This document shows positions 4,956 to 9,923 of a stretch of 14,007 nucleotides of DNA, piece after piece. The notes beneath the pieces were generated by a model. The model was not told the DNA's origin, did not search any database, and saw nothing but the letters and a program-made list of their open reading frames with translations. The translations under genes were made by a program, and so were the position numbers. Position 1 is the first letter of the stretch, and every line of letters begins with the position of its first letter. Origin of the DNA: Promethearchaeota archaeon (lineage in GTDB: Archaea > Asgardarchaeota > Lokiarchaeia > Sigyniarchaeales > SOKP01); the NCBI GenBank assembly GCA_048940445.1, contig JBHLON010000049.1, positions 3,892 through 17,898 on the forward strand, given 5' to 3'.

Positions 4956-5513
4956 TTAGAATTCAGGTTTATACATTTTTCGAAATTCTTCCCTTTGTCT
5001 TTCATTATACTTTTTCTCCAAAAATCTTAACACATTATGATGCGGAATTCCACTTAACAACATGTTAATTGCTTTTCTAGCTATCTGTAAATTATCATAA
5101 TCAGCAATTATTGAAATTGTTTTTCCATAAACAGATACATAACTTTCAGCATACCTCTCTATTGCCTTTCTCATTTCACCATTTCTTCCAATTATTCTAC
5201 CCTTTACCCTCTTTATTTTCTTCTCAGACTTTCCTAAGAGATTATAAAGATTAAATATTTCTAGCTCATAAGCATCTTCAACTAGTTTCATAGCTTTAAT
5301 CGGATTAAAGCCCCTATTAATTGCATTTAAAATTTTTTCTGCAGTGTATACATTCAAGGGATTATAATTGGGGCTTTCTAGAATAGGTTTAACTTCGCAA
5401 TCTCCTGTCTTGCTATCTAGGATAATTTTAACATTTAAATCATCCTCAATATTTCTTTTAGTCTCCCCATTTTTACCAATAATTACAGCAATTCTATTTT
5501 TACCAATCTTCAT
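4956..5513 (-). CDS. dim2: KH-domain small-subunit rRNA processing protein (aDim2/Pno1/Krr1 family)
   Basis: Two GxxG KH motifs (RIAVIIGKNGETK, KGRIIGRNG), AINRGFNP, and MLLSGIPH..V.RFLE. Directly downstream of rio1, as is usual in archaea. Confidence 0.93.
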   Translation of the reverse strand: MKIGKNRIAVIIGKNGETKRNIEDDLNVKIILDSKTGDCEVKPILESPNYNPLNVYTAEKILNAINRGFNPIKAMKLVEDAYELEIFNLYNLLGKSEKKIKRVKGRIIGRNGEMRKAIERYAESYVSVYGKTISIIADYDNLQIARKAINMLLSGIPHHNVLRFLEKKYNERQREEFRKMYKPEF

Positions 5514-5516
5514 TAT

Positions 5517-6350
5517 TTAATTCATTTTTTTATCAATTATTTCATTATAAAAAGATTCCAAATCAGGTAGTTTGACTCCAAATCTTTGAAAATAATTTGA
5601 AATGTTTTTGATATCTCTCACTAAATAAACTTCTGCTTTTGGATGTCGAATATCTACCGCTTGAGAAATGTCTATAACAAAAGCTTTTTGATTATGATAT
5701 AAAATGTTAAATTCTGATAAATCTCCATGAACGAGATTTGCTTTTTGATATAAATTCTTGATAAAGTTAAAAATTTGATTTAATAAACCTATAGGATCGT
5801 TTAATTTTTTGATATCTTTAAGTTTTGGGGCGGGAATGGATTGAAACCCAATATATTCCATAATTAATATATTATCTTTAACATAAATTGGTTTTGGTAC
5901 ACTTAATCCTTCCCTAAATGCTCGCATAAGATTTTTATATTCTTTACTTGCCCATAAAAAGATAATTTTTGATGGGTTGTGAGGTACCTTTTTGAAGCGA
6001 GGATCTCCAACAATATAATTATACATCCACTTTGATATGTTACTATCAATTTTGTAAATTTTAACTGCAACTTCTAAACCTGTTTTGGTATAAGCTAAAT
6101 ATATATTAGCTTCCTTACCTGCTGATATAATTCCTTCGACTTTATTTAGTGGACCATTAACTAGTATCTTATTCAAATTGAAAACGGTTCTTTCATCAAA
6201 AACAGATTCTACAGCAGCTTTCTTCTTTGTTTGATCAATTCTTTTTATCCTTTTGTAATCTATACTTTTTTTTTCTAAATCATCTATATCAGAATTTACC
6301 TCTTCGTTCAAAAAATTATCATCATATTTTTTATCATTATCCATTAACAT
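5517..6350 (-). CDS. rio1: RIO1 serine/threonine kinase-ATPase (small-subunit maturation)
   Basis: SAGKEANIY, AVKIY, YIVGDPRF, WASKEYKNL, VHGDLSEFNIL, IDISQAV. Start placed at ATG 6350 behind GGAGG (6360-6356); ATG 6344 is an alternative. Confidence 0.95.
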   Translation of the reverse strand: MLMDNDKKYDDNFLNEEVNSDIDDLEKKSIDYKRIKRIDQTKKKAAVESVFDERTVFNLNKILVNGPLNKVEGIISAGKEANIYLAYTKTGLEVAVKIYKIDSNISKWMYNYIVGDPRFKKVPHNPSKIIFLWASKEYKNLMRAFREGLSVPKPIYVKDNILIMEYIGFQSIPAPKLKDIKKLNDPIGLLNQIFNFIKNLYQKANLVHGDLSEFNILYHNQKAFVIDISQAVDIRHPKAEVYLVRDIKNISNYFQRFGVKLPDLESFYNEIIDKKMN

Positions 6351-7272
6351 TTTCTCCTCCAATTATCTTAAAAGAGTTCTTTTGATCAAAAAAGAAGGAA
6401 AAATTCTTCACTAATTTTTGATTATCATCGCTCTTTAATACGATTTTATTTTTAGTAATATTTTCAATTATATATTTGTGATTATCAATTTCAATAATAT
6501 CATTTTTTCTAAAAGGTAAAAATCTTATTAACGACTTTAACCTATAAATGTTTTTACCTTTTTGGATGTCCCTTCCTACTAATTTTTTAGTTCTTTTTAG
6601 AATGAAATGATATTTATTTCTCAAATGTGAAATTAAATGATTTAATAACTCATTTGTGCTTAACATAAGGTCTAAACCATATTTCTGGTCTACAATTTTT
6701 GAAATATATTGTTTATTATCCCTTTGGAATAGTTTTTCAACATACATTTGAATAGAATCCAGCGCTTCTTTAATTAAATTAAAGTAATTCTCATCATTTA
6801 CACGTAATTGTAGTATTGATAAATAGTAGGTCCCTCCTCTCAAATTTAAACAATTTTTGCATAATTCATAATTAATATTAACCATAATTAATTGTGTATG
6901 AGTTATTTTTGGATCTTCTTTTAGGGATCCATTAATATTAACTTCTAATGAGTTTAACAAGTTATCAGACGAATATTTAAAACTAGATTTATTAAAATCT
7001 AAATTAAAATTAACTTTTTCAGATTTTAAGTAAGTCTTTAATAGGAACCTCGAGATCGCTTGTTCAATAATAAAAAAAATGTCATCAGTATCCACTTGAA
7101 TCCAATCTTCCTTCTTCGAATAACTTGCGCAATCAAGACAAACATTAAAATCAAAATTAGAGGGAAATTCGAATAATGGATGTTCCTTTAAAAAACATGA
7201 AAGACACAATCCAACATGAGGTGAATCGTTCTTTATATTTATTCCACAAACAGCACAAAACCTATGGGGCAT
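6337..7272 (-). CDS. nmd3: NMD3 family large-subunit maturation protein
   Basis: Four CxxC pairs (CAVC, CLSC, CLDC, CKNC), GGTYY.SILQLR, and KLVGRD...GK.IYR. Start overlaps the upstream stop (TGATG). Confidence 0.92.
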   Translation of the reverse strand: MPHRFCAVCGINIKNDSPHVGLCLSCFLKEHPLFEFPSNFDFNVCLDCASYSKKEDWIQVDTDDIFFIIEQAISRFLLKTYLKSEKVNFNLDFNKSSFKYSSDNLLNSLEVNINGSLKEDPKITHTQLIMVNINYELCKNCLNLRGGTYYLSILQLRVNDENYFNLIKEALDSIQMYVEKLFQRDNKQYISKIVDQKYGLDLMLSTNELLNHLISHLRNKYHFILKRTKKLVGRDIQKGKNIYRLKSLIRFLPFRKNDIIEIDNHKYIIENITKNKIVLKSDDNQKLVKNFSFFFDQKNSFKIIGGENVNG

Positions 7273-7568
7273 CAGAACATCATCTTTAAAGCCATTGGGA
7301 CGCCATTTATTAAACGAACCCCCTCTTTAGGAAGGATGTTATGTTCAATTATTTTATTAATAATATTTTCTCCAACAACATTGAAATAAGAAGCATCTTT
7401 CAGAATTTCTATAGCATCTTTAATATCGATAAGATTTCCTCCAAAAAATGGTTCATTAATTTCAATTCTTAAATTACCTTCCATAAAAATCTGATTTAAT
7501 AATAGCTCATCACAGCATGCTACAGTTTGAATTTCATTTCTAGTATGAATTTTCACATAGACTTTCAT
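7272..7568 (-). CDS. DUF424 family protein
   Basis: 98 aa with ACCDELLL, I.E.FFGG, NVVGE..I, V..INGVP.A pattern, located between aIF-2beta and NMD3. Confidence 0.88.
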   Translation of the reverse strand: MKVYVKIHTRNEIQTVACCDELLLNQIFMEGNLRIEINEPFFGGNLIDIKDAIEILKDASYFNVVGENIINKIIEHNILPKEGVRLINGVPMALKMMF

Positions 7569-7577
7569 AATTTAATT

Positions 7578-8000
7578 TCATTTTTCTTTGATTTCTTCTC
7601 TTGCTCCACAGGCAGTACATTTAAGAAATTCTTTCCTGCCTTCTCTTTGGATTTCAGTATCTGGTTTATTACATATTTTACATAAAACATAAGTTTTTGA
7701 ATATTGTTCAATAAGTCTATTTAATACTTGCTCTTTATATATACCTTTTAAAAATAATTGTTGTCCTCGAATTTCTCCCATAGTACCTGCTTTTTTAAGA
7801 AAAATACCTAAAAAATGGCGTTTATCTCTATTTAAAGTATTTATAATTTTATTAAAATTTGTAATGTAGGTATTTTTCGATTCAATTCTTAATTGTACTT
7901 TTGGAATTTCAAATCTAGAAAGCTTTTTTACATTTTCTGGTATGCTTTCATATGCCCTTTCAAGAAGTTTTTCATAATTATGAAGATCCATTGATATCAT
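7578..8000 (-). CDS. eif2b: Translation initiation factor 2 beta subunit (aIF-2beta)
   Basis: YEKLLERAY, RFEIP, T.I.NF..I...LNRD, C-terminal zinc ribbon CKICNKPDT...CTACGA. Alternative start ATG 7991. Confidence 0.95.
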   Translation of the reverse strand: MISMDLHNYEKLLERAYESIPENVKKLSRFEIPKVQLRIESKNTYITNFNKIINTLNRDKRHFLGIFLKKAGTMGEIRGQQLFLKGIYKEQVLNRLIEQYSKTYVLCKICNKPDTEIQREGRKEFLKCTACGAREEIKEK

Positions 8001-8104
8001 CTAATCTTATATTCAATAAATAAAAAAATGTATCTTTCAAAATAATTTTTGTCATTTTAAATATCTATTTTTAAAATACTTTTAAAAAAGATAATTATAC
8101 TAAT

Positions 8105-8809
8105 TTAAGGCAAATAAGATTGGTAAATATTTTCTTCAGATTGATAAATTTTTGATTCCATTTCTAATTCTCTAATATGTCTCCTTAACTTTTCCTCAGG
8201 AATATCAATTAACTGTAATAACTTTTTAAAACTTATTCCCCTCTCACTTCGAGAAAACTTTTCTATTATAGATAAAACATTACCTTTAAAATCATCACTA
8301 TTATTTACAGGCTGAGTTAGAAATTTCAGTTCTGAATCCAAATCATTTTCTTCAATAAAATGTTTTTCATAGGATTTCAATTTTTTTATCATTTCAGAAT
8401 CACGTAATAATATTATGTTTACATTTTCAATGTTTTTCATAATCTCAATAGAAATAGAGATAGTCTCATACTTATAACTAATTAATCCTATAATTTCAAC
8501 TAAACTCCCTTTCTCAAAATGGTTGTATAATTCAGGATTAATGTCCCATTTATTTGCTTGTATTAAACCAGTTCCATCGTCTATATCAAATTCGATTCGT
8601 ACGTTTGATTCTTTATTATTATATTGAGAGCTTGAATCGTGAGAACTTACTTTTATTCTCTTTTCAATGATAGTACCATAAATTCGGACTCTTTTTATAG
8701 TACCAAATATAGTCCTTAGCATATTATTTTCTATTGAAAACTTTCCTTCAACAATATGTTTGATCCAACAACGGATTGCAGGTAATCTTTTCCTCTGTAA
8801 ATCACTCAT
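8105..8809 (-). CDS. RPA2/RPA32-like single-stranded DNA-binding subunit (OB fold + C-terminal winged helix)
   Basis: R.PA...I..I..G, RVRIYGTII, IDDGTGLI...W, LVEIIG OB-fold pattern; acidic linker; C-terminal GISFKKL...LRRHIRELEMESKIY wHTH-like segment. ATG at 8809. Confidence 0.82.
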   Translation of the reverse strand: MSDLQRKRLPAIRCWIKHIVEGKFSIENNMLRTIFGTIKRVRIYGTIIEKRIKVSSHDSSSQYNNKESNVRIEFDIDDGTGLIQANKWDINPELYNHFEKGSLVEIIGLISYKYETISISIEIMKNIENVNIILLRDSEMIKKLKSYEKHFIEENDLDSELKFLTQPVNNSDDFKGNVLSIIEKFSRSERGISFKKLLQLIDIPEEKLRRHIRELEMESKIYQSEENIYQSYLP

Positions 8810-8913
8810 CAAAACCTACTCCAAAAAGAAGAATTTAAATATATAAAAGAAAAAAATTTTAGAAATATACATGTATTTATTAAAGCATAAATATACCTTA
8901 TAATCTTTTTATG

Positions 8914-8919
8914 AAAAAA
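8914..8919 (-). terminator. Oligo(T) archaeal terminator downstream of tRNA-iMet
   Basis: Minus strand reads ...CCA CAC TTTTTT directly after the tRNA 3' end. Confidence 0.5.
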
Positions 8920-8939
8920 GTGTGGTAGCGGGGGTTCGA

Positions 8940-8971
8940 ATTTCAGCTTGTTGGAAACCAAACTTCTTGCT
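8940..8971 (-). other. tRNA intron 3 (32 nt, T-loop position 59/60)
   Basis: AGCAAGAAGTTTGGTTTCCAACAAGCTGAAAT. Strict BHB: outer GTTCG/CGAAC, central TTCA/TGAA, bulges AA^A and AT^T, inner GC/GC. Confidence 0.9.
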
Positions 8972-8984
8972 TTTGAACGAACGA

Positions 8985-9015
8985 GTCTGCCGATCTTTCG
9001 ATTGTGGAAGAACGA
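8985..9015 (-). other. tRNA intron 2 (31 nt, variable loop, best placed at 46/47)
   Basis: TCGTTCTTCCACAATCGAAAGATCGGCAGAC. Central helix CTGA/GCAG (3 of 4), bulge GA^T, inner helix CGTTCTT/AAGATCG (6 of 7). The boundary can slide up to 6 nt because of a TCGTTC direct repeat. Confidence 0.75.
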
Positions 9016-9024
9016 TCTCAGGGT

Positions 9025-9049
9025 CTCTCTATGGAGTGAAGCCATCATA
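9025..9049 (-). other. tRNA intron 1 (25 nt, canonical position 37/38)
   Basis: TATGATGGCTTCACTCCATAGAGAG. Outer helix is the anticodon stem, central helix CTCA/AGAG (3 of 4 pairs), bulges TA^T and AG^A, inner ATG/CAT. Confidence 0.85.
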
Positions 9050-9119
9050 TATGAGCCCTGCGGCATAAACCAGGCTAGCCCACCCCGCTCTACTTGCTCC
9101 TATGAAAAAATTCAACTTT

Positions 9120-9134
9120 CTATATATTTTTATA
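9120..9134 (-). promoter_or_regulatory. Putative TATA-box region of the tRNA-iMet gene
   Basis: Minus strand TATAAAAATATATAG about 30-45 nt upstream of the mature 5' end. The AT-rich background weakens the call. Confidence 0.35.
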
Positions 9135-9251
9135 ATTATCTTATTTTTTAATATTTACCCTTTTTAGAAGTTTTAGTGGATTTTTTTAACTTTATGTTAA
9201 AATAATCTGATAACGTAATTTGTTATTAATCAAATAGGATATTTGAAAGTA

Positions 9252-9923
9252 ATGGTTGATGCTCATATTCAAAGCTTTTTTGGTCATAACATAGGAATAA
9301 TAGTAAAAACCTTTTCAAAATCTAAACCATATATTTTCTTCCAATTTTTAAAAAAAAAGCCTAATGGAATTTGGGAAAAGCCATCTATAAATGAAGGGAA
9401 AGTTATAAAATTCTCATTAGAAGAAATTATTATGATTTTACAGGTATTAAATCGCAATATTCAAAATTGGACAAATTACCACATATATCAGAATAAAAAA
9501 ACCCATATTTCATTTAGTTGGGAAGATGATATTACAAAAACTTTATGGATAAACATTGATGATTACTCAAAGATGCTCAATTTTGCTCAAACAGAAATTT
9601 TAAGATTATTAATGACCCATATATTAAATGAAAAAATTATCTATTCTACTTCTTCAAAATTAATTAATAAGACAGAATTATCCAATCTTAATAAAGAAAA
9701 ATCAAGAGATCGGAATTTCAACAAAGAAGTCCCCATTACGATTCCGATAGAGGGCTTAATTAAAGAAGATTCAAATAAAGCAATTTTAATTAAATTCAAT
9801 GCTAATAAGGAAATATGGATTCCTAAATCAACTATTCATTCTGATTATCTTCCAAAGAAATTTGAATATCAAATCTTCTTAATAGAAAACTGGATATTAA
9901 AAAAAAATAATATAAAATCCTAA
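9252..9923 (+). CDS. Hypothetical protein; N-terminal Whirly/PC4-like domain (tentative) plus small C-terminal KAIL...WIPKS beta domain
   Basis: Long ORF divergent from the tRNA (ATG 9252, or TTG 9243 after AGGA). Domain calls come from pattern resemblance only. Confidence 0.75.
   Translation: MVDAHIQSFFGHNIGIIVKTFSKSKPYIFFQFLKKKPNGIWEKPSINEGKVIKFSLEEIIMILQVLNRNIQNWTNYHIYQNKKTHISFSWEDDITKTLWINIDDYSKMLNFAQTEILRLLMTHILNEKIIYSTSSKLINKTELSNLNKEKSRDRNFNKEVPITIPIEGLIKEDSNKAILIKFNANKEIWIPKSTIHSDYLPKKFEYQIFLIENWILKKNNIKS

Follow-up and report, generated by a model that had tools for sequence, protein, structure and literature searches.

The window analysed here, a stretch of 14,007 nt from an archaeal contig, carries on its minus strand (9089-8923) an initiator tRNA-Met (tRNA-iMet) gene of 167 nt, made up of four exons (40, 9, 13 and 17 nt) and three introns, which measure 25, 31 and 32 nt and interrupt the tRNA at positions 37/38, 46/47 and 59/60. 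The original prediction, which assigned 88 of the 167 nt to introns, was right in all its coordinates and sizes. The gene and its surroundings are organised as follows.

9120-9135, minus strand: AT-rich, TATA-like stretch seen in the sequence 31-46 nt upstream of the gene, similar in close relatives
9050-9089, minus strand: exon 1, 40 nt, tRNA positions 1-37 (5' acceptor strand, D arm, 5' anticodon stem, CAU anticodon)
9025-9049, minus strand: intron 1, 25 nt, at the canonical position 37/38, relaxed hBHBh', junction unambiguous
9016-9024, minus strand: exon 2, 9 nt, positions 38-46
8985-9015, minus strand: intron 2, 31 nt, in the variable loop at 46/47, HBh' type
8972-8984, minus strand: exon 3, 13 nt, positions 47-59 (5' T stem and T loop)
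8940-8971, minus strand: intron 3, 32 nt, in the T loop at 59/60, strict hBHBh'
8923-8939, minus strand: exon 4, 17 nt, positions 60-76, with a genomically encoded CCA
8914-8919, minus strand: T6 run seen in the sequence directly after the CCA
8809-9066, minus strand: spurious 85-aa ORF that crosses the tRNA exons and introns
4956-8812, minus strand: downstream cluster encoding an RPA2-like OB protein, eIF2-beta, DUF424, NMD3, a RIO1-like kinase and a Dim2-like KH protein

With a GC content of 50% the tRNA gene forms an island in a window of about 28% GC. The upstream AT-rich stretch is a putative promoter, a label to be read with caution in a genome of 28% GC, and the T6 run is a putative archaeal terminator; a sigma-70 promoter scan of the DNA was uninformative, the host being an archaeon. 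Junctions 1 and 3 allow one placement each. Judged by sequence alone, intron 2 has seven possible placements between 46/47 and 52/53, since the 6 nt with which it begins are repeated in the next exon, and it is the BHB geometry, together with orthologous introns devoid of the repeat, that fixes it at 46/47. The repeat was also considered as a target-site duplication and rejected as a general feature, being absent from most orthologous versions. No split, permuted or nested-intron form was met at the locus, where four collinear exons lie within 167 nt and the three introns are separate.

An archaeal initiator tRNA is marked by an A1-U72 pair, by G11:C24 and by an anticodon stem with three G-C pairs at its base. 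All of these marks are present in the spliced cloverleaf (the three G-C pairs consecutively as 29-41, 30-40 and 31-39), as is the CAU anticodon, which bears out the identity first proposed for the gene. ARAGORN reads the spliced 79-mer as a tRNA-Met(CAT) of 79 nt with an encoded CCA and a complete cloverleaf, while neither the window nor the unspliced gene yields a hit with it, and an Rfam search of the window found no tRNA either. The comparison of locus and spliced sequence that had been suggested for ARAGORN thus yields a call only once the introns are removed, and the warning that such a gene is easily missed or covered by false ORF calls was apt on both counts, given the failure of the two tools and the overlapping 85-aa ORF. 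The spliced 79-mer is letter-for-letter equal to the intron-less genes found at the same locus in four other genomes (L053, L070, L104 and L120), and its 76-nt body is identical in 86 of 101 relatives, which were retrieved with exon 1 as the search key. Shuffled introns match the observed BHB quality in 1.4%, 1.3% and 0.26% of trials for introns 1, 2 and 3, respectively. With a product equal to the intron-less genes of four other genomes, the predicted gene structure is beyond what chance would be expected to provide.

Exon 1, which served as the search key for relatives, has an exact match in 103 genome records, an identity that is therefore given by the search; most of these records are titled Promethearchaeota, including Loki_b31 and Loki_b32, and the sources of the matching DNA are chiefly mangrove and sediment metagenomes. 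The host is a Lokiarchaeia-type Asgard archaeon, the MAG belonging to the genus that includes the MAG SOKP01 and probably Loki_b31. A number of records titled Thorarchaeota, Hermodarchaeota, Hodarchaeota, Odinarchaeota and Nanopelagicaceae bacterium sit inside this Lokiarchaeia clade on the flanking-protein tree and are probably mislabelled (examples are L040, L045, L054, L061 and L083). The tRNA gene lies immediately upstream of, and on the same strand as, the cluster at 4956-8812, which is syntenic in relatives; its first four members were named from Pfam, the RIO1-like and Dim2-like proteins from their translations. The cluster headed by the initiator tRNA gene comprises genes for translation initiation and ribosome maturation. 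On the plus strand, 9243-9923 holds a divergent 226-aa ORF with no Pfam match, which is found in many, not all, relatives (40-67% identity) and is absent at the same position throughout one clade.

Pattern and blastn searches of the MAG, which is 93% complete, found no second tRNA-iMet, the original prediction having named such a copy as a point to be checked, and exactly one iMet-like match was found in each of the 31 genomes that have a match. A second copy elsewhere in the genome retains some residual chance, with the MAG at this level of completeness and a dozen or more expected tRNAs missing from the tRNA census described below. It is very unlikely, on the other hand, that the locus is a dead copy into which sequences were inserted, or an artefact of co-occurring strains wrongly joined at common exons. 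Exon 1 is identical over about 100 species, metagenome contigs do break there, and the MAG is incomplete; yet the exons are perfectly conserved, with no second copy found, and the proteins upstream and downstream both place the locus in the same clade. Moreover, a 40.5-kb contig from an independent study (X13) spans the locus with all three introns and only two changes within the gene, both in intron 3, and triple-intron genes also occur in two other species (L085 and L138).

That the introns are cut at BHB motifs, as originally proposed, is sustained by their BHB-type folds and by the enzymes that the genome encodes, but a strict BHB is found in intron 3 alone, whereas introns 1 and 2 are of relaxed form. 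Intron 3 adopts the strict hBHBh' structure with 4/4 central pairs and two 3-nt bulges, its helix h being the T stem (5 bp) and h' a helix of 2 bp, and all 46 distinct orthologous versions keep the 4/4 central pairs. Intron 1 forms a relaxed hBHBh' with a central helix of C-G, U-A, C-G and A.A, an h of 5 bp and an h' of 3 bp. Intron 2 is of the HBh' type (C-G, U-A, G-C, A.G), the outer exon helix being absent, and 14 of 16 distinct versions retain this geometry with its A.G mismatch. Introns 1 and 2 therefore do not display the strict hBHBh'; both possess the at least three central pairs and intron-side helix, conserved in orthologues, that define the relaxed BHB (HBh'/BHL). Overall, the BHB pairs are conserved over 69, 16 and 46 distinct orthologous introns 1, 2 and 3, respectively. 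Intron 2 is 31 nt long in every carrier, and compensatory changes have occurred across relatives in seven of its eight stem pairs. In its region 96.6% of the cells are paired, compared with 82% in shuffled (0 of 500) and 31-51% in slid alignments, a shuffle test that is inflated by relatedness, with pair types that still differ widely between clades.

For introns 1 and 2 the BHB folds are not the structures preferred by nearest-neighbour folding: in the full precursor they lie 6.4 and 10.9 kcal/mol above the minimum, respectively, in models that score bulges and purine mismatches poorly. The cost of the intron 2 fold is 5.9 kcal/mol after removal of intron 1, while the intron 3 motif lies 0.5 kcal/mol above the minimum in every intermediate. 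A strict mutual exclusion of introns 1 and 2 was considered and rejected, in that all three motifs can be forced together, although this is energetically expensive and leaves intron 1 just two outer pairs. In these folding models introns 1 and 2 are predicted to compete with rather than to exclude one another.

Two EndA paralogues, alpha and beta, and the ligase RtcB are present in the genome. EndA alpha aligns with the solved splicing endonucleases 3ajv_B and 3p1z_B, which we take to be Aeropyrum pernix structures, over the catalytic Tyr/His/Lys and the Lys of the N-terminal loop. An (alpha-beta)2 EndA with an L1 loop has been reported in Asgard archaea, and the loop has been linked to the cleavage of relaxed motifs (PMC5829648). 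The host thus appears, judging from its gene content, to have what splicing of this gene would require, an EndA with the relaxed-motif loop and a ligase.

It is highly probable that the locus is a functional, single-copy initiator tRNA-Met gene spliced at three BHB sites, with introns that are passengers lost and regained. The whole gene would be transcribed as a single 167-nt precursor, which a heterotetrameric (alpha-beta)2 EndA with its specificity loop would cut at the three BHB sites, and RtcB would rejoin the exons in three ligations. Intron 3 is expected to fold independently of the other two. The situation differs for introns 1 and 2: bases 41-44 of exon 2 have a double role in the 3' strand of the anticodon stem and in the central helix of intron 2, and since this helix would borrow bases 41-43 of the very stem that flanks intron 1, the two introns are probably removed in sequence with refolding in between. 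The folding energies, crude as they are for such motifs, hint that intron 1 may leave more easily first. The original prediction had this essential tRNA depend on three splicing events; with a sole iMet found, BHB-type introns and the enzymes encoded, all three events are very probably needed in this organism. The introns themselves are dispensable, because relatives make the same tRNA with any subset of them.

Introns are plentiful in the other tRNA genes of this genome. A homology-guided census, which is a lower bound and leaves several junctions in other tRNAs ambiguous, recovered about 32 tRNA genes, eight of them with no intron, 15 with one, seven with two and two with three, so that about 24 of 32 carry introns at roughly 1.1 introns per gene; T-loop introns occur in eight tRNA genes. 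The second three-intron tRNA is a probable Ile(UAU) gene (C61:59342-59519, plus strand) with inserts of about 25 nt in the D loop, 47 nt at 37/38 and 32 nt in the variable loop, and an Ile(UAU) gene is found in one relative (L186) as well. A dozen or more expected tRNAs are absent from the census, for instance Asn, Glu, Trp, Tyr, elongator Met and Ile GAU, being either missing from the MAG or too fragmented for the homology-guided search. On the same contig as the Ile(UAU) gene the N-terminal domain of uL11 (L242, C61:46064-46245) matches in two pieces that lie in different frames. No close copies of the three iMet introns exist elsewhere in the genome, a blastn search of which returned the locus itself and chance 11-15-mers.

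The three introns turn over among relatives. Writing the presence of introns 1, 2 and 3 as three digits, the 102 complete syntenic loci (two that are cut off, L044 and L105, were left out of all counts) fall into the patterns 100 (37 loci), 101 (29), 001 (10), 011 (8), 000 (7), 110 (7), 111 (3) and 010 (1), i.e. all eight possible combinations are present. On a tree of the flanking proteins of this one locus, drawn from draft MAGs and without L078, 15, 14 and 20 changes are needed for introns 1, 2 and 3, respectively. Even near-sisters differ, among them L114 and L125 (100) from L101 (011) at about 0.04 substitutions per site, L054 (100) from L039 (011) at 0.03, and L131 (110) from L069 (101), and in near-sister pairs with unlike patterns the flanking proteins agree on both sides. 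For L039 (CAZDTP010000025.1) and L054 these proteins are about 96-97% identical on either side, the intron pattern is swapped and the non-coding flanks at the tRNA differ, which makes the difference a candidate for a short replaced tract. The sister of the studied locus is L060 (101), and the next clade consists of four 110 loci and one 101 locus. The introns of the sister and this clade are 90-97% identical to those of the studied gene, except for intron 3 of L069 (71%); the sister group shares 28-29 of the 31 nt of intron 2, and in intron 3 all but one of the 32 nt are the same in L060. Given the local tree and these identities, the triple form is either a retained local ancestor or a recombinant.

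Several loci depart from the common scheme. In L075 and L088 the insert at 59/60 is 64 nt long and has the look of two introns, of about 30 and 34 nt, stacked one after the other. The second of them resembles the usual intron 3, and the mature T loop of these loci is predicted to have C59 instead of A59. L014 and L038, from other families of the order, have iMet genes with 29-nt D-loop introns instead, L014 with a T-loop intron in addition. The CCA is encoded in seven of seven intron-less alleles and in 46 of 94 intron-bearing ones; this was not used as a sign of reverse transcription, since five of the seven intron-less alleles are deep-branching and not independent.

Each intron would then be a homologous, structure-conserving element that has been precisely lost and also regained in the lineage, and the triple form would be the coincidence of all three, either inherited from the local clade's ancestor or put together by recombination. 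Three accounts of how this came about have been weighed. The favoured one, to which we assign about half of the total probability, combines precise loss with horizontal transfer: homologous recombination or gene conversion at the invariant exons would exchange intron alleles among related species, with no homing endonuclease involved, and the triple gene itself may be recombinant. Exchange accounts for the near-sister loci with matching flanks and different patterns, and agrees with a two-state model, one without rate differences among lineages, which prefers gain plus loss and rejects loss-only for introns 2 (p=5e-5) and 3 (p=3e-9). One clade contains two unlike intron-1 alleles, of 25 and 32 nt, in an interleaved arrangement, and AU tests reject the monophyly of either carrier set, the carrier groups having been named after the tree was seen; L045 and L132 share 24 of 25 nt of intron 1 across the interleaved clade, and the sister triples L138 and L085 are only about 52% alike in introns 2 and 3, for which closer matches occur in other branches. 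However, short introns that evolve slowly under a pairing constraint are expected to show identity over long distances, the tree stems from one locus of draft MAGs, and inner exons of 9 and 13 nt are short for crossovers. Nor has any donor element come to light: two patterns designed to find viruses with the gene, with its 3' half or with intron 3 had no match in viral contigs, a 17-mer gave seven matches there that are due to chance and lie outside any tRNA context, and the genome has no duplicated 3' half (an integration scar) and no intron donor.

Loss alone, from an early ancestor of the group that had all three introns, is a serious competitor of somewhat lower probability. The studied gene would keep the ancestral state, and the many precise losses elsewhere could have come about through, for instance, conversion with spliced RNA or cDNA as the template. 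The near-identity of introns 2 and 3 within the local clade, together with intron-2 carriers that do not form a clade (AU p ~1e-71), makes a local ancestor with all three introns parsimonious; the fixed 31-nt length and invariant C-G closing pair of intron 2 argue for its single origin, and loss-only fits intron 1 (p=0.72). Such a history would need 17, 29 and 29 losses of introns 1, 2 and 3, while five deep-branching lineages are intron-less and the interleaved intron-1 alleles are left unexplained. Distinctly improbable are independent gains de novo at a few splice-permissive sites, with introns that look alike by convergence. Intron 3' ends dictated by exon pairing would facilitate this, T-loop introns do recur in other tRNA genes of the genome, and for intron 3 gain-only nearly equals gain plus loss (lnL -61.1 versus -59.4), but gain-only is far worse for introns 1 and 2 and the genome offers no donor. 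Independent gains appear particularly disfavoured for intron 2 on grounds of homology, its length being exactly 31 nt and its covarying columns alignable in 16 of 16 distinct versions. Precise loss plus interspecies exchange thus ranks above loss alone, and loss alone above independent gains.

The original prediction regarded triple-intron tRNAs as rare and best known from Thermoproteales, a view that is outdated: multi-intron tRNAs are common in Asgard archaea (PMC11291895; bioRxiv 10.64898/2026.10.13.758758). In three Asgard genomes 92-95% of the tRNA genes have introns, over half with several (PMC11291895), and a three-intron tRNA-iMet is listed for Atabeyarchaeia-2 (PMC11291895, Suppl. Data 4), which the studied gene resembles in intron number as listed. 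A three-intron initiator in itself is an expected Asgard feature that has already been reported in Asgard archaea. The studied locus shares with Asgard multi-intron tRNAs the presence of several short BHB introns, both canonical and non-canonical in position, the failure of standard tools to find them, the two EndA paralogues and the lack of intron copying between tRNA types. A preprint describes focal families with 2.2 introns per gene and up to five, other Asgard families having 0.91 (bioRxiv 10.64898/2026.10.13.758758). Its main text does not name Lokiarchaeia or Promethearchaeia, and the host studied here, a member of the Promethearchaeia (Lokiarchaeia), differs from those focal families by its lower load of about 1.1. 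The preprint reports repeated gains in other Asgard classes by a route that it does not identify, and the tests it sets out concern copying between tRNA types, mobile elements and reverse transcription; same-site exchange between species does not appear among them (bioRxiv 10.64898/2026.10.13.758758). The present analysis goes beyond it in following one locus over 102 species, where homologous introns turn over and alleles conflict with the tree.

Multi-intron tRNAs of Thermoproteales such as Thermofilum and Pyrobaculum have been described in a series of studies (Marck and Grosjean 2003; Sugahara 2007/2008; Fujishima 2010). They resemble the studied gene in their relaxed BHB motifs at non-canonical positions, an (alpha-beta)2 EndA with a specificity loop and up to three introns. 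There, however, introns recur across tRNA types within one genome by transposition, whereas the studied gene has no close intron copy in its genome and the similarity is one between species at the same site. Neither is the gene permuted, unlike the iMet gene of Thermofilum pendens (PMC4090602). Another parallel is the tRNA-Thr(GGU) of a Caldiarchaeum population, where close relatives likewise differ in intron number at one locus, in that case one versus two (Sugahara 2012, PMC3293823); a recombinase element and a tRNA fragment lie nearby there, and none was seen at the studied locus.

What is new is that three iMet introns come and go independently at identical spots over about 100 related species. 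The conflict between the intron alleles and the flanking-protein tree points, with roughly even confidence for and against, to precise loss plus the exchange of alleles between species. More tentatively, and a little short of an even chance, the ORF-less introns of 25-35 nt could be seen as exchangeable alleles among Lokiarchaeia for which the invariant iMet exons serve as a conversion platform without any homing endonuclease, each of the three introns being lost precisely and re-acquired sideways independently of the others. If true, this would give the arrival route, the same site in another species, that the 2026 Asgard census has left open.

Asgard EndA is a close archaeal relative of the eukaryotic TSEN, and the strict, relaxed and competing BHB motifs that occur on one RNA are natural substrates for the Asgard enzyme. 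An essential gene that is invisible to ARAGORN and Rfam, and hidden under a false ORF, implies that the tRNA sets and gene calls of Lokiarchaeia are under-annotated. A single mature tRNA encoded with eight intron combinations, which differ even between near-sisters, bears directly on how Asgard tRNA introns arrive and turn over, and with about 100 species sampled its locus lends itself readily to testing the routes involved.
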